Origin: a virus
Lineage: Duplodnaviria; Caudoviricetes
Direction: 5' to 3' (one strand)
Virus record (IMG/VR): IMGVR_UViG_3300049982_000030
Location: 1 to 28,085 of that record
Length of the DNA: 28,085 nt
The translations under genes and the position numbers were made by a program. Below, in pieces: positions 7,468 through 21,484 of this stretch. Within the stretch, counting starts at the first letter, position 1, and the number at the start of each line of letters is the position of its first letter. Below the pieces are notes generated by a model that saw only the letters and a program-made list of their open reading frames with translations, did no database searches and was not told the origin of the DNA.

Positions 7468-8051
7468 TCATCGCCGGACTCGACACCTCGCTCACCTCAA
7501 CCGGGCTCGTCCTCATCGGGACCACCCCCGACCTGGACTGGCGGGTCAAGCTCCACCGGGTCGAGAGCAAAGCGCCCACAACCGGCCGCGACCAGAAGAC
7601 CGGCAAGAAACTCGCACCGACCCTGAAGCAGCGCCTCGACCGACTCACTGACATCGAAGACGCCATCGTCGCGCGCCTCAACGGCGTCACCTTCGCCGTC
7701 ATCGAATCACCATCCTTCGGCAGCGTCGGCTCAGCGAGCCGCGACCTCGCCGGCCTCTGGTGGCGCGTCGTCGGCAAACTCGACGGACTCGGCATCCCCG
7801 TCGCCGAAGTCTCCCCGTCCGGCCGCATCAAGTACGCACTCGGCACCGGGCGCGGTGACAAGGACCGCGTCCTCGCCGCCGTCATCAAGCGCTACCCCGA
7901 CCTCGATGTCACAGGCAACGACGTCGCCGACGCCCTCGTGCTCGCCGCGATGGGCGCCAGGTGGCTCGGCCACCCGATCGAAGACTCACTGCCCGCCAAC
8001 CACATCGCAGCAATGGACGGCGCGCACTGGCCCGAGGCGGTGGCGGCATGA
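7464..8051 (+). CDS. ruvC: RuvC-like Holliday junction resolvase
   Basis: IAGLDTSLTSTG, AVIESP, KYALGTGRGDKDRV and DVADAL catalytic pattern. Confidence 0.9.
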   Translation: MIIAGLDTSLTSTGLVLIGTTPDLDWRVKLHRVESKAPTTGRDQKTGKKLAPTLKQRLDRLTDIEDAIVARLNGVTFAVIESPSFGSVGSASRDLAGLWWRVVGKLDGLGIPVAEVSPSGRIKYALGTGRGDKDRVLAAVIKRYPDLDVTGNDVADALVLAAMGARWLGHPIEDSLPANHIAAMDGAHWPEAVAA

Positions 8052-9370
8052 CGGACCTTCAGGTGGTGTCCCTCTTCGCCGGGATCGGCGGCATCGACCG
8101 CGGCCTCGAACTCGCCGGCGCATCCACCGCACTCCTGTGCGAGAAGGACAAACACGCCCGCAACATTCTCGCCCGCCACTACCCACAGGCGGTCATCCAC
8201 AACGACGTAACGGAGCTCACCGCCGATGACTGCCGAGCAGCTGGAGCTGTACCCGGACGAACCGTCCTCACCGCTGGCTGGCCATGCCAAGGCAACTCCG
8301 TGGCGGGCGCTCGTGGGGGCATGGACGATCCACGCTCAGGTCTGTGGTCGCATGTCGTGCGCCTGCTGGCTGAACACCGTCCCGCCTGGTTCATCGGTGA
8401 GAACGTGCCTGGTCTTCTCTCCGTCAACGACGGACGAGACTTCTCCATCGTCGTTCACGACCTGGCCCGCCTCGGGTATGGGTTCACCTGGCGGGTTCTG
8501 GACGCTCGACACTTCGGAGTCCCCCAACGGCGCCGTCGCGTCGTCATTGTCGGACGTCTTGGAGACACCGGGGCCGCAGCTGCACAAGTACTACTTGAGC
8601 CCGAAGGCCTGTCAGGGAATCCTGCGGAGGGCATCGAACCGCGGCCGCGTCTTGCCGGCGATGCTCGAGAGAGCGTTAAGGCTGGTCGCTGGCACGCAGA
8701 CATAGCGCCGACGCTCAGCGCGCCCAGCGGAGGGAGCCGCCGGTACGGCACCGACGCAGACACTGCCGAGTCGCTGGTGGTGGTTGGGATCCTCGGAGAC
8801 CAGACCCACACCCTGACCGCAGAAGGTCACGATGCCAGTGAAGACGGCACGGGGCGCGGCACACCGGTCATCGCCTACGCGCCCACCTTCGTGCCGGCTC
8901 TGACCACGCGATCCGGCAACACCCAGGATGACCAGCAGACCGGGCAGGTTGTCGCCTTCGATCTACGCGGCCGGGACGAGGGAGCGCTGCCCGAGGTCCA
9001 CCGCGACGGCTCCACCGTCGGGAGTCTCCGCGCGGCCGGAGGTGGCTCCTCGCGGGACTACATCGCGTTCGCTGAGAACCAGCGCGGCGAACTGGCGATC
9101 AACCCGACTATGCCAGCGCTCAAGGTCGGCGGCGGGAAACCGGGTCAGGGTTACCCGGCTGTCACTGACGGCATGATCGTCCGCCGCCTCAGCCCGCGGG
9201 AGTGCGAGCGCCTCCAGGGCCTCCCTGACGGATGGACCGAGGGTCAGGCCGACTCGCAGCGTTACAAGCAGCTCGGCAACAGCGTCGCCGTACCCGTCTT
9301 CGAATGGGTCGGACGCCGGCTCGTGGCCGTCGACAACCAACTCAACGCACCGGTCCTGAAGGGGGCCTGA
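8048..9370 (+). CDS. DNA (cytosine-5) methyltransferase
   Basis: Motif I LFAGIGG, IV GWPCQG, VI ENVPG, VIII PQRRRR, IX RRLSPRECERLQG, X YKQLGNSVAVP. Confidence 0.96.
   Translation: MTDLQVVSLFAGIGGIDRGLELAGASTALLCEKDKHARNILARHYPQAVIHNDVTELTADDCRAAGAVPGRTVLTAGWPCQGNSVAGARGGMDDPRSGLWSHVVRLLAEHRPAWFIGENVPGLLSVNDGRDFSIVVHDLARLGYGFTWRVLDARHFGVPQRRRRVVIVGRLGDTGAAAAQVLLEPEGLSGNPAEGIEPRPRLAGDARESVKAGRWHADIAPTLSAPSGGSRRYGTDADTAESLVVVGILGDQTHTLTAEGHDASEDGTGRGTPVIAYAPTFVPALTTRSGNTQDDQQTGQVVAFDLRGRDEGALPEVHRDGSTVGSLRAAGGGSSRDYIAFAENQRGELAINPTMPALKVGGGKPGQGYPAVTDGMIVRRLSPRECERLQGLPDGWTEGQADSQRYKQLGNSVAVPVFEWVGRRLVAVDNQLNAPVLKGA
8226..8705 (+). CDS. Nested +1-frame ORF, putative C5-methyltransferase beta subunit
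   Basis: 159 aa fully inside the MTase gene; GGAG upstream; C-terminal SSLSDVLE...KYYLSPKACQGILRRASNRGRVLP.MLERAL is MTase-like; host-frame codon usage is distorted over the overlap. Confidence 0.72.
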   Translation: MTAEQLELYPDEPSSPLAGHAKATPWRALVGAWTIHAQVCGRMSCACWLNTVPPGSSVRTCLVFSPSTTDETSPSSFTTWPASGMGSPGGFWTLDTSESPNGAVASSLSDVLETPGPQLHKYYLSPKACQGILRRASNRGRVLPAMLERALRLVAGTQT

Positions 9371-9375
9371 TTCCT

Positions 9376-9651
9376 ATGCAACGCAACGAGATGAACCCGC
9401 GCCACTGGCGCGACTTCCTCGCCGTACTCGACACCGTCGAACGTGGCCGCGAGGTATCCAGCAACCACCTCCGCGACCTGCTCGCGGCAGCCGACATCCC
9501 CGAGAAGTCCCGCGGCGGACTGTTCGCTCAGGCTGCGAGCCAGGGCTACCTGAAGCGGGTCCGGTACGAGCCGTCCACCGGCGACACGGCCAACCGCTCG
9601 GTGATCTGCATCTACAAGCGCACACGCCAGCAAGGACCGGTGGCCGCATGA
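9376..9651 (+). CDS. Hypothetical protein, probable winged helix
   Basis: Helical N-terminus then GGLFAQAASQGYLKRV...IYKRT; coupled to thyX. Confidence 0.65.
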   Translation: MQRNEMNPRHWRDFLAVLDTVERGREVSSNHLRDLLAAADIPEKSRGGLFAQAASQGYLKRVRYEPSTGDTANRSVICIYKRTRQQGPVAA

Positions 9652-10364
9652 CCACCATCACGATCCACAGCGACGTCGACGTGCAACTCGTCGAGTCAAT
9701 GGCATCCGACAAGGCCGTCGCCGACGCCGCCCGGGTCAGCGTGATCGGCGACGAGACCCTGACCCGCGAGGTCGACACTGCCGCCGACGCCGGACTGATC
9801 GGCTACCTGATGAAGAACCGGCACGGCACCCCGTTCGAGCACAACGCCTTCAAGTTCTACGTCAAGGCACCGATCTTCGTCTTCCGCGAGTTCCACCGCC
9901 ACCGTGTCGGGTTCTCCTACAACGAGATGTCCGGCCGCTACACCGAACTGCCGGGAGAGTTCTACATCCCCGCCGCCGACCGGCCGCTCGTTCAGAAGGG
10001 CAAGCCGGGCGCCTACGAGTTCGTCACCGGCAGCCATGACCAGCACCTGACCATGCACTGGTCGATCCACCGCGCCTACGAGACGGCCTGGGTTGTCTAC
10101 CAGGACCTGCTCAAGCAGGGCATCGCCAAAGAGGTCGCCCGCATGGTGCTCCCGGTCGGGATCTTCAGCCAGATGTACGTCACCTGCAACGCCCGGTCGC
10201 TGATGTCGTTCCTCAGCCTCCGCACCAAGGACGCCTCCAGCACGTTCCCGTCATACCCGCAGCAGGAGATCGAGATGGTCGCCCGCCGCATGGAGAACGC
10301 CCTCGCCGAGGCGATGCCCATCACCCACCACCACTTCCAGAAGAACGGGAGGGTCGCGCCGTGA
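9648..10364 (+). CDS. thyX: Flavin-dependent thymidylate synthase
   Basis: AARVS, HGTPFEH, ThyX signature RHRVGFSYNEMSGRY, EVARMVLP, NARSLMSFLSLR. Confidence 0.96.
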   Translation: MTTITIHSDVDVQLVESMASDKAVADAARVSVIGDETLTREVDTAADAGLIGYLMKNRHGTPFEHNAFKFYVKAPIFVFREFHRHRVGFSYNEMSGRYTELPGEFYIPAADRPLVQKGKPGAYEFVTGSHDQHLTMHWSIHRAYETAWVVYQDLLKQGIAKEVARMVLPVGIFSQMYVTCNARSLMSFLSLRTKDASSTFPSYPQQEIEMVARRMENALAEAMPITHHHFQKNGRVAP

Positions 10365-12005: not shown

Positions 12006-12256
12006 CGCACGCAGCACTCCCGGGCGGGTGGCGGGCCATCACGCTCCAGGACATCGTCCGCGGTGAAGAACCGCTCGAGCGCGGCCTCCACAACGTCGGC
12101 CTCCGTGGCACCGAGAAGGCGAAGGCCGAGCAGGACCTGGCCGAAGCGCGCGCCTCGTACCTCGCCGGCGACGTGACCACCGCGCTGGCAGTGGCCGCGA
12201 GTATCGCCGAGGAACTCCAGACGACACGGCAGCCAGGAAGGGGAGCGGCCGCGTGA
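12002..12256 (+). CDS. Hypothetical protein
   Basis: Coupled at both ends; SD GGAGG. Confidence 0.6.
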   Translation: MTHAALPGGWRAITLQDIVRGEEPLERGLHNVGLRGTEKAKAEQDLAEARASYLAGDVTTALAVAASIAEELQTTRQPGRGAAA

Positions 12257-13008
12257 TGCCGTACTACGCCGACGACTCTGTCACGCTGTATCACGGCGAT
12301 TTCCGCGAGTTGCTGCCCATCCTCGCGATCACCGCTGACCTCATCGTCGCTGACCCGCCCTACGGTGAAACCTCACTCGACTGGGACAGCTGGATCGACG
12401 GCTGGCCCTCAATGCTCACGCCGTACTCCAATGCGATGTGGTGCACCGGCTCCATGCGCATGTTCATGGACCATCGAGACGAGTTCGCCAACTGGAAGCT
12501 CTCACAGGACATCGTGTGGGAGAAGCACAACGGCTCCGGGCTACACGCCGACCGGTTCCGCCGCGTCCATGAGTTCGGGCTTTTCTGGTATCAGGGCAGC
12601 TGGGACTCGCTCCACCACGTGACACCCACAGTGGACCAAGCCGTTCGCAGAACCCGGCGATCGAAGCGTCGCCCGCCACACCTTGGGCACATCGACGCAT
12701 CACCGTACTCCAGCGAGGACGGCGGGCCACTGCTCATGACCTCGGTCATCTTCGCCCCCTCGATGCATGGCCGCGCCATCAACGAGACCGAGAAGCCCAC
12801 CGCGCTGCTCGAGCCCCTGATCTCCTACGCATGCCCTGTCGGCGGTCTGGTGCTCGACCCGTTCGCCGGGTCATCGTCCACTCTCGATGCCGCTCGCAAC
12901 CTTGGTCGGCGCGCGGTCGGAATCGAGAAGCGCGAGAGCCAGTGCGAGAAGGCAGCCAACCGGCTCTCGCAAGGCGTCCTGATGTTCGAGGACGGTGGTG
13001 CCGCGTGA
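12253..13008 (+). CDS. DNA N4-cytosine/N6-adenine methyltransferase (beta class)
   Basis: TLYHGD, DPPY catalytic motif, then TEKP and VLDPFAGSSST SAM-binding motif. Confidence 0.93.
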   Translation: MMPYYADDSVTLYHGDFRELLPILAITADLIVADPPYGETSLDWDSWIDGWPSMLTPYSNAMWCTGSMRMFMDHRDEFANWKLSQDIVWEKHNGSGLHADRFRRVHEFGLFWYQGSWDSLHHVTPTVDQAVRRTRRSKRRPPHLGHIDASPYSSEDGGPLLMTSVIFAPSMHGRAINETEKPTALLEPLISYACPVGGLVLDPFAGSSSTLDAARNLGRRAVGIEKRESQCEKAANRLSQGVLMFEDGGAA

Positions 13009-13523
13009 TGACCATCGGCAACATCAAGGCCGCCGCCGCGGTCGTCCGCACCATCCGCGAGGACTGGGACCAGCGCGCCGTCACCGACCAAGTCAACACG
13101 CTGGCCGCCGAATACAACCACCGCGACGTCGTCTACGCCTGCATCACCATCGCCGAAGACCTCAACAACCGGGCCCCGATCACCCTGTCAATCAAGGCCG
13201 CCGACGTCATCGCGAAGCTGCACGAGAAGACAAAGATGCCGCGCATGTTCTCAGCCGGCCGGCGCGACGACGCGTTCCTGTGCGACACGTGCAGCAAGAC
13301 CGAATCGAACTGCATGTCCGCCGCGACGAACCTCGACGGGTGCGACCACCTGTTCAAGTCGATCCGGCAAGCCGAAGCCGAACGCGAGAAGCAGCGCCTC
13401 GTCAACAGCCCTGAGCGGATGGAGGCGAAGGCCGAGTTCGCCCGCCACAAAGGCGACCTGTTCGCCATGCCCGCCGACATCGACCAGCCACAACACCCCG
13501 AACCCGAACAGGAATCAGCATGA
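13008..13523 (+). CDS. Hypothetical protein, possibly replication-associated
   Basis: TGATG overlap (alternative GTG 13005); helical domain IREDWD...NRAP plus CDTC...C...CDH. Confidence 0.65.
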   Translation: MTIGNIKAAAAVVRTIREDWDQRAVTDQVNTLAAEYNHRDVVYACITIAEDLNNRAPITLSIKAADVIAKLHEKTKMPRMFSAGRRDDAFLCDTCSKTESNCMSAATNLDGCDHLFKSIRQAEAEREKQRLVNSPERMEAKAEFARHKGDLFAMPADIDQPQHPEPEQESA

Positions 13524-14266
13524 GCACGACGATCGAGTGGACCGAGACGGTCTGGAATCCAACCACCGGATGCGACCGGATCTCGGCCGGGTGCGACAAC
13601 TGCTACGCCCTCAAGATGGCCAAGCGGCTCAAGGGCATGGGGTCGGCCAAGTACCAGACCGACGGCGACCCACGTACCAGCGGCCCGGGCTTCGGAGTCG
13701 CGATACACCCGGACGCACTGACGATCCCGCTCCGGTGGCGCAAGCCGCGGACCGTGTTCGTCAACTCGATGTCGGACCTGTTCCACGCCCGCGTCCCGCG
13801 CGACTTCGTTGCTCAGGTGTTCGACGTGATGGCATCCACACCGCAGCACACCTACCAGATCCTCACAAAGCGGCCAGAGCGGGCCAGGCGCGTCCTGGCA
13901 AGTTTGGCCCCGACCCCGCTGCCCAACGTCTGGCTCGGCACCAGCATCGAATCCGACGATCACGTGCGCCGTGCCGACGCCCTCCGCAACACCCCGGCCG
14001 CCATCCGGTTCATCTCCGCTGAGCCGCTACTTGGACCGCTTCCGTCGCTCGACCTGACGGGCATCGACTGGCTGATCGCTGGTGGCGAGTCCGGTCCGGC
14101 CGCGCGCCCGATGCAGGACGAGTGGGTGCGGGATCTCCGCGACCGCTGCCGTGATGCGGGAACCGCCTTCTTCTTCAAGCAATGGGGAGGGCGCACTCCC
14201 AAGGCCAACGGTCGCGCGCTCGACGGCCGCACCCACGACGCGTACCCGGTGCCCGCCACCGCCTGA
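13520..14266 (+). CDS. DUF5131 / phage Gp37-Gp68 radical-SAM-like protein
   Basis: IEWT..VWNPTTGCDRISAGCDNCYA (Cx6Cx2C), FVNSMSDLFH, QILTKRP, GGESG, FFFKQWGG. Confidence 0.92.
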   Translation: MSTTIEWTETVWNPTTGCDRISAGCDNCYALKMAKRLKGMGSAKYQTDGDPRTSGPGFGVAIHPDALTIPLRWRKPRTVFVNSMSDLFHARVPRDFVAQVFDVMASTPQHTYQILTKRPERARRVLASLAPTPLPNVWLGTSIESDDHVRRADALRNTPAAIRFISAEPLLGPLPSLDLTGIDWLIAGGESGPAARPMQDEWVRDLRDRCRDAGTAFFFKQWGGRTPKANGRALDGRTHDAYPVPATA

Positions 14267-19185: not shown

Positions 19186-19383
19186 GTGACCGACGCTCGC
19201 CTCATCCCGCCTCCAGCGGTCCTGGCGTACTGCTCCCGCTGCCACGCGACGAGGACCCTCCGCCTGCACGAGGCCGACATGGAGCGGCAGATCCACCAGT
19301 ACGCCTGCACGCACTGCGGTTGGCAGGGAGCGGAGATCACCTCGGAGTTCGCCCGCGACCTGCCTCAACCAACGGGGGATTGA
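19186..19383 (+). CDS. Small zinc-ribbon protein
   Basis: GTG 19186 after GGGGGA; CSRC...CTHCG. Confidence 0.6.
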   Translation: MTDARLIPPPAVLAYCSRCHATRTLRLHEADMERQIHQYACTHCGWQGAEITSEFARDLPQPTGD

Positions 19384-19652
19384 TGACCGACACCTGCGCC
19401 TGCTCGACCAACCCGGAGCCGCATGACCACCGGTACCTGCGACCGCTCCAGGTCGCTGCGCTGGTCGGCCGGCCGTTCCAGACCATCGACTCGTGGCGGA
19501 AACGCGGAGACCTGCCCCAGATGGGGGAGGGGTACGGGCAGCGGAGGGTGTGCGTCTGCTGCGCTGCGGGGCTCGCCACGACGACCGCTGTGAGGTGGTC
19601 GAAGCGTGCCCGTCGGGGAGGCTACAAGTCGCCTCGGAGGGCTGCCGCATGA
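19383..19652 (+). CDS. MerR/Xis-like HTH protein with Cys clusters
   Basis: LRPLQVAALVGRPFQTIDSWRKRGDL; TGATG overlap. Confidence 0.65.
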   Translation: MTDTCACSTNPEPHDHRYLRPLQVAALVGRPFQTIDSWRKRGDLPQMGEGYGQRRVCVCCAAGLATTTAVRWSKRARRGGYKSPRRAAA

Positions 19653-19659
19653 CCTCGGT

Positions 19660-19728
19660 GTCAAGTAACGCTTGACGGAATGTCGCGCGTCACTTGACAG
19701 CCCCCGCACGCTCGTGAACTAATTCACG
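19660..19728 (+). promoter_or_regulatory. tRNA/late promoter region with two operator-like sites and a CRP-like palindrome
   Basis: GTCAAG-TAACG-CTTGAC (19660-19676), GTCGCG-CGTCA-CTTGAC (19682-19698), TTGACA (19694-19699), CGTGA-N6-TCACG (19713-19728). Confidence 0.6.
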
Positions 19729-19757
19729 GCAGCGGCAGAGGTATCTCTGCCACCCGC

Positions 19758-19831
19758 AGCAGAGTGGAGCAGTTCGGTAGCTCGCTGGGCCCATAACCCA
19801 GAGGTCGCCGGTTCAAATCCGGTCTCTGCCA
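19758..19831 (+). tRNA. Initiator-type tRNA-Met (CAT)
   Basis: Full cloverleaf: acceptor GCAGAG/CTCTGC with a 1:72 mismatch, D stem GAGC/GCTC (A11:U24), anticodon stem CTGGG/CCCAG with three G:C pairs, T loop TTCAAAT, A73; CCA not encoded. Confidence 0.93.
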
Positions 19832-19894
19832 CGAACAACCCGCGCCCCCACGCAGCGCGGCAGGCCCCACGACTTCGACCCCGTGGCTGGCCAA

Positions 19895-19935
19895 GCGAAG
19901 GCCCCGACTCACCACCTGAGAGCCGGGGCCTTCGC
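19895..19935 (+). terminator. Strong GC hairpin, probable intrinsic terminator or attenuator
   Basis: GCGAAGGCCCCG...CGGGGCCTTCGC 12-bp stem extended by CTC/GAG; no clear U-tract. Confidence 0.6.
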
Positions 19936-19996
19936 CATTCCAGCGCCCCGGGCCTGACTACGGAAGGGACCGGGAGCAAGCCGAGGAGGGCAGCCG

Positions 19997-21484
19997 ATGA
20001 CCGCGCTGTCCGCCTTCGAATACGCCGCCCGCATGTTCGCCGAACCCGAACGCAAGTACGCCACCCCCGGTGAGTTGGCCCGGGCGCTCGACCCGCGCAC
20101 CGTGCAAACCCCGGCGCTCGATCTGATCGACGAGGCGCTCGTCGAACTGTTCAACACCCCCGACGGCCGGCTCATCATCAGCATGCCGCCGCAGGAGGGG
20201 AAGTCGACCCGGGTCGCGAAAGACTTCGTCACCTGGGTCCACACCATGAACCCGGGCTGCCGGGTCGTCACCGCGTCGTACGGGCAAGGCCTGGCCAACC
20301 GCAACGGCCTCGCACTCCGCCGCAACATCAGCGACCACCCGCAACTCGGCCTCGCAGTCGCCCCGGACAACGGCGCGAAACACGAGTGGGAGATCGCCCA
20401 GCATCGCGGCGGTGTCCTCGCAGTCGGCATCGGTGCCGGTGTCACCGGCCGCCCCGCCGACATGCTGGTCATCGACGACCCGATCAAGGACCGCAAGGAA
20501 GCCGACTCGGCGCTGATCCGGGAGAACATCTGGGACTGGTGGATCGAGGTTGCCTCCACCCGCCTCGCACCCGGCGCACCTGTCGTACTGATCCTGACCC
20601 GCTGGCACGAGGACGATCTGGCCGGCCGGCTCAAGGAGGCTGAAGACGGCCACCTGTGGCAAGTCCTCAATATCCCGGCGCAGGCTGACCATGACCCGGG
20701 GAAGGGCGAGACTGACGCGCTTGACCGCGAGCCGGGTGAGTTCATGGTGTCCGCCCGTGGCCGCACGATCGCCCAATGGGAAGCGATCAAGACCCGCGTC
20801 GGCTCCCGCACCTGGAACGCCCTCTACCAAGGCAGGCCATCACCGGCCGAGGGCGGCATGTTCAAGCGGGACCACTGGCGCGAGTACGACGTACCGCTGT
20901 GGCTGGTCCGCGACGACGGGGCACACATTGTCACCCACGCCGACGAGATCCTCGCGTCCTGGGACATGACATTCAAAGACACCGCATCAAGCGACTTCGT
21001 CGTCGGGCAGGTGTGGATGCGGCGCGGCGCCGAAGCGTTCCTGCTGGACCAGGTCCGTGGCCGCATGGACTTCGTCACCACCTGCGCCCGGTTCCGTGAG
21101 TTCTCCGCGAAGTGGCCGCAGGCAACACTCAAGCTCGTCGAGGACAAAGCCAACGGCACCGCGGTCATCAACGCGCTGCGCCGCATCGTGTCCGGCATCG
21201 TCCCCGAAGAACCGCACGGCTCGAAGGAAGCACGCGCCGCCGCCGTCACCCCGCTGGTTGAAGCAGGCAACGTGTGGCTGCCATCACCCGAACTCGCCCC
21301 GTGGATCGGTGACCTGATCGAAGAAGCCGCTGCGTTCCCCACCGGTGCTCATGACGACCAAGTCGACGGACTGTCCCAAGCATTGAACCGGCTCATCCTC
21401 GCGCCGCTGCTCGACGGCTCCCTGGTCGAGCCCGACGAGTTCGACGAACTCGACACCGCCGGCTACGCCATCAGCCCCTACTGA
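19997..21484 (+). CDS. terL: Terminase large subunit
   Basis: Walker A MPPQEGKS, Walker B LVIDDP, TRWHEDDL, LYQGRP, nuclease SWD...EDKANG...HDDQVD; SD GAGGAGG. Confidence 0.96.
   Translation: MTALSAFEYAARMFAEPERKYATPGELARALDPRTVQTPALDLIDEALVELFNTPDGRLIISMPPQEGKSTRVAKDFVTWVHTMNPGCRVVTASYGQGLANRNGLALRRNISDHPQLGLAVAPDNGAKHEWEIAQHRGGVLAVGIGAGVTGRPADMLVIDDPIKDRKEADSALIRENIWDWWIEVASTRLAPGAPVVLILTRWHEDDLAGRLKEAEDGHLWQVLNIPAQADHDPGKGETDALDREPGEFMVSARGRTIAQWEAIKTRVGSRTWNALYQGRPSPAEGGMFKRDHWREYDVPLWLVRDDGAHIVTHADEILASWDMTFKDTASSDFVVGQVWMRRGAEAFLLDQVRGRMDFVTTCARFREFSAKWPQATLKLVEDKANGTAVINALRRIVSGIVPEEPHGSKEARAAAVTPLVEAGNVWLPSPELAPWIGDLIEEAAAFPTGAHDDQVDGLSQALNRLILAPLLDGSLVEPDEFDELDTAGYAISPY

Follow-up and report, generated by a model that had tools for sequence, protein, structure and literature searches.

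Nucleases that cut tRNA-fMet occur in many bacteria (PMC4705866; PMC7180214; PMC8522696), VapC toxins being among the enzymes described as cutting it (PMC4705866; PMC8522696). The tRNA-Lys of phage T5 escapes PARIS (PMC11464382), and nuclease escape by phage tRNAs has been proposed in general terms in a paper that gives the recognition sequences of the enteric enzymes as unknown (PMC10264068). Phage tRNAs need not be resistant, since those of phage D29 are cut by VapC52 (PMC13273310). Lone tRNA-fMet genes are known from prophages (PMC12429752), and two entries for cluster C1 mycobacteriophage tRNA-fMet carry A1, C72, A73 and U33 (PMC10264068, Supplementary file 1a, rows 30 and 48). The initiator tRNA gene considered here is a real and likely functional variant of this known phage cargo, with C in place of U at position 33, and the escape role proposed for it is testable. 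As a single gene it is modest: phage initiator tRNAs and the A1.C72 mismatch were already known.

Genomic setting

The window, i.e. the whole stretch of viral DNA that was analysed (a contig of 28,085 bases), contains a single tRNA, a tRNA-Met(CAU) gene on the + strand. The gene order runs from repressor-like, recombination, replication and methylase genes to the terminase, portal and head genes. The tRNA sits in front of the latter, with terL starting 165 bases downstream, and the features of this region are as follows.

19383–19652, + strand: small open reading frame with a weak helix-turn-helix match (Pfam HTH_23, E 0.004, below the cut-off), a possible late-gene regulator
19694–19723, + strand: putative late promoter with a −35-like hexamer and no canonical −10; TTGAC is invariant in 6 of 6 aligned leaders
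19734–19751, + strand: short hairpin ahead of the tRNA, with a 3′ arm that shares a 10-base repeat with the tRNA 3′ end; a varied form of the hairpin is present in relatives without the tRNA
19758–19831, + strand: tRNA-fMet gene of bacterial initiator type, with A1.C72 and without an encoded CCA (ARAGORN; Rfam, 58.7 bits; pair-by-pair numbering)
19791, + strand: C33, the sole difference from the host-type copy L410 at an unpaired, non-terminal base (numbering; host survey)
19838–19935, + strand: conserved three-hairpin leader between the tRNA and terL (z −6.35 for 19835–19960), present with or without the tRNA
19997–21484, + strand: terminase large subunit, first gene of the packaging and head operon (PHROG 38, E 2.8e-106)

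The placement with the late genes given in the preliminary description is thus upheld, and expression of the tRNA together with them is predicted. A promoter consensus scan of the leader region found none, and no RNA sequencing runs containing this sequence were listed. The three hairpins between the tRNA and terL have C-rich loops and, though they show little covariation, are conserved in 6 of 6 relatives aligned. Rfam gave only weak, sub-threshold matches to this leader (Scr3202 and 6C RNA), and a scan of viral contigs for the leader motif returned 20 loci, only 3 of which were already known relatives.

The hairpin ahead of the tRNA (19734–19753) resembles an acceptor-stem minihelix, and its 10-base repeat recurs at the tRNA 3′ end (19823–19832). 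A role for this hairpin as a switch invading the acceptor stem was considered and rejected, as the predicted pairing probability is 0.0 and the hairpin exists without the tRNA. The early region (7961–9370, 9648–10364 and 12253–14266) holds a C5 methylase, a thymidylate synthase-like gene, a second methylase and a DUF5131 gene.

The TerL relatives are named for Mycobacterium sp. (87%), Kribbella (80% and 72%) and Nocardioides (67%), and the best cultured matches include Arthrobacter phages (61–62%). As these relatives are named for actinobacteria, an actinobacterial host is likely.

Identity and structure of the tRNA

ARAGORN calls a tRNA-Met(cat) at 19758, and Rfam RF00005 matches over 19758–19831 with 58.7 bits and an E value of 1.8e-10. 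By numbering, the acceptor stem consists of an A1.C72 mismatch followed by G2:C71, C3:G70, A4:U69, G5:C68, A6:U67 and G7:C66. The discriminator base is A73, after which the sequence continues with CGA, so the CCA is not encoded. The anticodon loop is C32 C33 C34 A35 U36 A37 A38 (CCCAUAA), C33 being position 19791, and the anticodon stem contains three consecutive G:C pairs at 29:41, 30:40 and 31:39, an initiator feature (PMC5389676). The T loop is UUCAAAU, with U54, U55, C56 and U60. The cloverleaf with a CAU anticodon, the unpaired 1:72 combined with G2:C71, C3:G70 and A73, and a purine 11:pyrimidine 24 pair (A11:U24) are all as in bacterial initiators. One further element, G4:C69, is replaced by A4:U69; it is a minor formylase determinant in E. 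coli and not family-defining, and many C1.A72, U33 copies share A4:U69. The main formylase determinants named in PMC9976931 and PMC5389676 are all retained.

By its sequence the gene product is of the bacterial tRNA-fMet type. It is very probably a working initiator, with charging, formylation and maturation predicted from that identity. The numbering, together with ARAGORN and Rfam, confirms the position, loop and first pair reported beforehand, as well as the signs of formylation then listed (the 1:72 mismatch, G2:C71, C3:G70, A11:U24 and A73). An assembled contig of run X1 covers 19706–19891 with 0 differences; X1 may be the source sample, so this match excludes a typing error only.

Comparison with actinobacterial host copies

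Aligning the tRNA with a host-type actinobacterial copy (L410) gives 64 identical bases of 74. The 10 differences comprise both bases of the 1:72 mismatch, the compensatory pairs 4:69, 6:67 and 51:63, one change from G:C to G:U, and C33. The stem changes all keep pairing, while 1:72 remains a mismatch, and the compensatory changes suggest that the tRNA fold is under selection. Actinobacterial chromosomal tRNA-fMet copies (such as L410 and L427–L439) have in common with the contig tRNA the D loop, the T loop, the three G:C pairs, A11:U24, G2:C71, C3:G70, A73 and a 1:72 mismatch; the D and T arms had been called actinobacterial-like, and their loops are indeed the same as in the host copies. The contig tRNA differs in having C33 for U33, A1 for C1, A4:U69 and A6:U67 for G:C pairs, C51:G63 and G49:U65.

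The first pair had been described as the reverse of a usual C1.A72, a contrast that does not apply to the likely host group. Among 34 actinobacterial loci given, 31 copies were readable, and all of these have C1, with U72 in 18 and C72 in 13; A1.C72 is therefore one change from a host state. An encoded CCA is absent in 17 of the 31 copies too. For phages A1.C72 is ordinary and already published. Among distinct viral copies, 8 of 77 with C33 and 7 of 82 with U33 have it (drawn from at least 119 and at least 120 IMG/VR loci, respectively), with 14 and 12 different 1:72 states in the two sets. A tie between A1.C72 and C33 was thus rejected, the mismatch being equally frequent with U33 and the same-site relatives (see below) having C1.C72. 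Neither C33 nor A1.C72 is common in host chromosomal tRNA-fMet as far as sampled, since neither was found in the sampled actinobacterial chromosomal copies; both recur in phages, and a view of them as peculiar to this one tRNA is not supported.

Resemblance to eukaryotic initiators

The likeness to vertebrate tRNA-iMet noted beforehand is real for the pieces that were checked. Human tRNA-iMet has C33, and a probe in the supplement of the same paper has the identical six-base acceptor 3′ strand, although its base 72 is U and its T loop of the A54 type (PMC8887486). Metazoan cytoplasmic tRNA-iMet has C33, the six-base strand and the three G:C pairs in common with the contig tRNA. It differs in its A1:U72 pair, where the contig tRNA has C72 and a mismatch, in A54 and A60 of the T loop, where the contig tRNA has U54 and U60, and in being without the R11:Y24 pair (PMC9976931) that the contig tRNA keeps as A11:U24.

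That the tRNA or its arms derive from a eukaryotic tRNA-iMet is extremely unlikely, even though C33 and the acceptor 3′ strand match the human tRNA and the 23-base anticodon arm is also found in 8 of 24 viral loci whose T loops are of eukaryote type. A single transition separates this arm from its actinobacterial counterpart, both the D loop and the T loop are bacterial, and local alignment scores reach 55 to host copies compared with 26–34 to seven viral copies of the eukaryote type. When bacterial-type initiators sharing the acceptor strand were sought, 112 metagenome and 9 viral loci were obtained. Among the 55 distinct well-paired tRNAs that have it (5 poorly paired sequences were dropped from the set), 49 have U33, and 27 of those 49 have C1.A72. 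A eukaryotic origin was rejected on the bacterial T loop, A11:U24, the 1:72 mismatch and the occurrence of the same acceptor stem in ordinary U33 copies. The earlier suggestion of convergence is also supported, and the resemblance is likely a coincidence.

Presence and absence among relatives

A tRNA is present in 2 of 16 loci with TerL relatives. In three relatives (L025, L027 and L029) the tRNA is missing, although the promoter-like site, the first hairpin and the leader downstream are all there, and aligning L029 with the contig leaves a clean 76-base gap in its place. As these close relatives have the same leader without it, the tRNA is dispensable; it is optional cargo at a fixed site. 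Loss by recombination between the two 10-base repeats was rejected, since L029 still has the stretch from hairpin to insertion point and so does not fit the product of such an event.

Two relatives (L504 and L563) also carry the tRNA at this site; their copies have C1.C72, C33 and an exchanged, compensatory 51:63 pair. Contigs of runs X3 and X4 also extend from the tRNA into the leader, and one X2 contig at this site probably has U33, as judged only from depths summing to the reported value. The high summed depth of C33 contigs in X2–X4 was set aside, because these runs had been selected on the wording of the query. In L031 the matching place upstream of terL is taken by a different C33 initiator, which has G1.G72. 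At the same upstream position the TerL relative L030 (2256–2330) has a divergent tRNA with a CAU anticodon and without the three G:C pairs. L504 contains an extra insert of ~110 bases between the tRNA and the leader hairpins, and L025 and L029 have short inserts before terL; the leader seems to be a preferred site for small cassettes. Scanning the neighbours of 12 further loci revealed one more C33 copy before terminase genes (L022), the others not being so placed within the available DNA. A 95% identical copy with U33 is also found (L577).

A non-translational role, in which the tRNA would act as a nuclease decoy or as a processing site splitting the late leader, is suggested by its position inside a conserved structured leader and by the cloverleaf not being the lowest-energy fold (−27.1 compared with −29.7 kcal/mol). 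Such a role is improbable, as the major initiator identity elements are all kept, with compensatory changes, and a 96% identical copy occurs in an unrelated context after glycosyltransferase genes (L021/L585).

The optional presence of the gene argues against tRNA-dependent lysogeny, in which the phage would integrate into the host tRNA-fMet gene and this copy would replace that of the host. Lysogeny of this kind is known in actinophages for other isotypes (PMC10865867, the main text of which does not contain 'fMet'), and the contig encodes repressor-like and excisionase-like genes. The tRNA, however, heads a lytic late operon, close relatives are without it, and no integrase was found among the 52 open reading frames scanned of this partial contig, which makes the explanation very unlikely.

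Position 33 in hosts and viruses

Among 400 genomes drawn from the Nocardia phylum, U33 was found in 359 and C33 in 0, counts that rest partly on 12 genomes flagged as unpublished. A class-level draw of 400 genomes, partly overlapping the first, likewise gave C33 in 0. In the phylum draw, 1 genome of the 400 has a loop without A38, near HNH and regulator genes. C33 therefore separates the phages from the sampled actinobacterial host group, and the anticodon loop of the contig tRNA differs from that of the isoacceptor in the host group to which its TerL relatives point. A scan of GTDB gives an estimate of ~790 C33 stretches among 185,579 genomes. Of 120 such loci listed, 2 are actinobacterial by title, and both lie in prophage DNA just ahead of packaging genes, in genomes that also hold U33 copies. 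An Enterocloster genome shows the same layout, with a prophage C33 copy just ahead of packaging genes and U33 copies elsewhere.

IMG/VR is estimated to hold ~170 C33 compared with ~1600 U33 stretches, and C33 is present on many unrelated tRNA bodies in viral contigs. A viral scan that allowed any base at loop positions 32, 33, 37 and 38 listed 120 loci, 7 of which could be matched to loci from the previous scans (3 of them on their order in the scan), and yielded 88 distinct initiator-type tRNAs. The consensus loop is found in 55 of these and a non-consensus loop in 33, with C33 in 8, a purine at 33 in none and U33 kept in 80; some hosts of these contigs may carry such loops themselves, and host genes at the edges of prophages probably account for some of the consensus copies. 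About one-tenth of viral initiators thus change a base that is fixed in the sampled host phylum, and about one-third change some loop base. The swaps that recur in the viral loops (L587–L699, L041–L047; 33 of the 88 distinct sequences) are U32 with C38, U38, G37 and C33. Six cultured actinophage copies, picked from 114 records, all have U33 and are all altered elsewhere in the anticodon arm relative to the host.

C33 is nonetheless tolerated in cells, since it is the sole form found in 15 of 55 matching genomes of the Weissella family (61 searched; none mixed). It recurs in Planctomycetota, Erysipelotrichaceae, Patescibacteria and archaea among the GTDB matches listed, and a single-record Phycisphaerales chromosome has one match, with C33. 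In the single genomes checked for Phycisphaerales and Solobacterium, as in part of the Weissella family, it was the sole initiator form found (L289, L298, L377 and L305). The published statement of U33 in prokaryotic initiators, made from four named species (PMC8887486), consequently has exceptions in whole bacterial lineages. The cellular occurrences support function and equally allow drift. No description of C33 in bacterial or phage initiator tRNAs was found in the open-access literature searched; PMC7781912 and PMC5175351 yielded nothing on position 33, and the accessible part of PMC2528185 describes an unusual initiator loop without discussing C33.

A possible role in nuclease escape

The reading that we put forward, at somewhat less than an even chance as a whole, is that of a working late initiator whose C33 renders it less open to attack by host enzymes that recognise the loop. 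Transcription would start at the conserved −35-like site near 19694, together with the late genes, after which the precursor would be trimmed and given its CCA by host enzymes. The tRNA would then be charged, formylated and used to start translation, adding to or replacing host tRNA-fMet while virion proteins are made. C33 would be one of several phage-side loop changes that produce a poorer target for enzymes reading the fixed anticodon loop of the host.

Escape by C33 is plausible by analogy with such systems as T5, and tolerated drift is nearly as likely. What favours escape is the contrast between hosts fixed at U33 (359 U33 and 0 C33 of 400) and phages that vary (33 of 88 listed). In addition, the C33 prophage copies, two actinobacterial and one in Enterocloster, lie ahead of packaging genes in genomes whose other copies have U33, the six cultured actinophage copies differ from the host arm elsewhere, and L031 has its different C33 initiator at the matching place. 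Against it, most viral initiators keep U33 (80 of 88 listed; 6 of 6 cultured), three close relatives have the same leader without the tRNA, and the same-site X2 relative probably has U33 on its summed depths. A secondary-structure model of the precursor gives the acceptor stem a probability of only 0.2. The mapped VapC cut falls between 38 and 39, not at 33 (PMC10264068), and no link between cleavage and position 33 was found in the passages covered.

The tRNA may instead provide an extra dose of working initiator late in infection, with C33 a tolerated neutral change; position 33 would drift because an initiator can carry C there. This is quite possible, though we would not call it probable. 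C33 is a single transition, the Weissella-family genomes and the other lineages named above use it, phage first pairs vary widely, and a U33 version of a nearly identical tRNA exists in L577. Neutrality accords less well with the sole unpaired internal change having hit a base that is invariant across all 359 matching host genomes while the D loop, variable among hosts, is unchanged here, or with the recurrence of C33 on many unrelated viral bodies.

C33 could also serve to keep A37 free of t6A. With U33 changed to C, the action of E. coli TsaBCDE on initiator tRNA is blocked in vitro (PMC8887486), and the other viral variants hit 32, 37 and 38, which are also relevant to t6A. The anticodon loop of S. 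aureus tRNA-fMet is, however, already unmodified in vivo (PMC13443448), and we regard this explanation as highly improbable.

Returning to escape, a broader and doubtful proposal is that bacteria, including actinobacteria, run anti-phage enzymes, either nucleases or toxins that modify, reading the fixed CUCAUAA initiator loop, and that phages have answered repeatedly with a few loop swaps (C33; U32 with C38; U38; G37). The C33 gene would then be a swappable counter-defence cassette heading the late operon, and the set of swaps would map the recognition code. The C33 and U33 forms make a one-base allele pair on one tRNA body, by which the question of why phages carry initiator tRNAs becomes directly testable.

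Comparison with known systems

The T5 tRNA-Lys that withstands PARIS/AriB (PMC11464382) is likewise the phage version of a host tRNA, altered in its anticodon arm; its resistance has been shown, whereas that of the contig tRNA is hypothetical. The tRNA-fMet copies of cluster C1 mycobacteriophages are similarly phage-borne initiators with A1.C72 and A73, but they have U33 and belong to tRNA-rich genomes, whereas the tRNA described here is the only one of its contig and lies in a late leader. As optional cargo, a lone or paired Met/fMet tRNA is also seen in phiLM21-like prophages (PMC12429752) and in Clavibacter phage CN1A. In CN1A an unannotated initiator-type tRNA with U38 (L461, 1500–1576) adjoins an annotated tRNA-Trp. 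It too is found just ahead of the terminase genes, but with U33 and U38, where the contig tRNA has C33 and A38.
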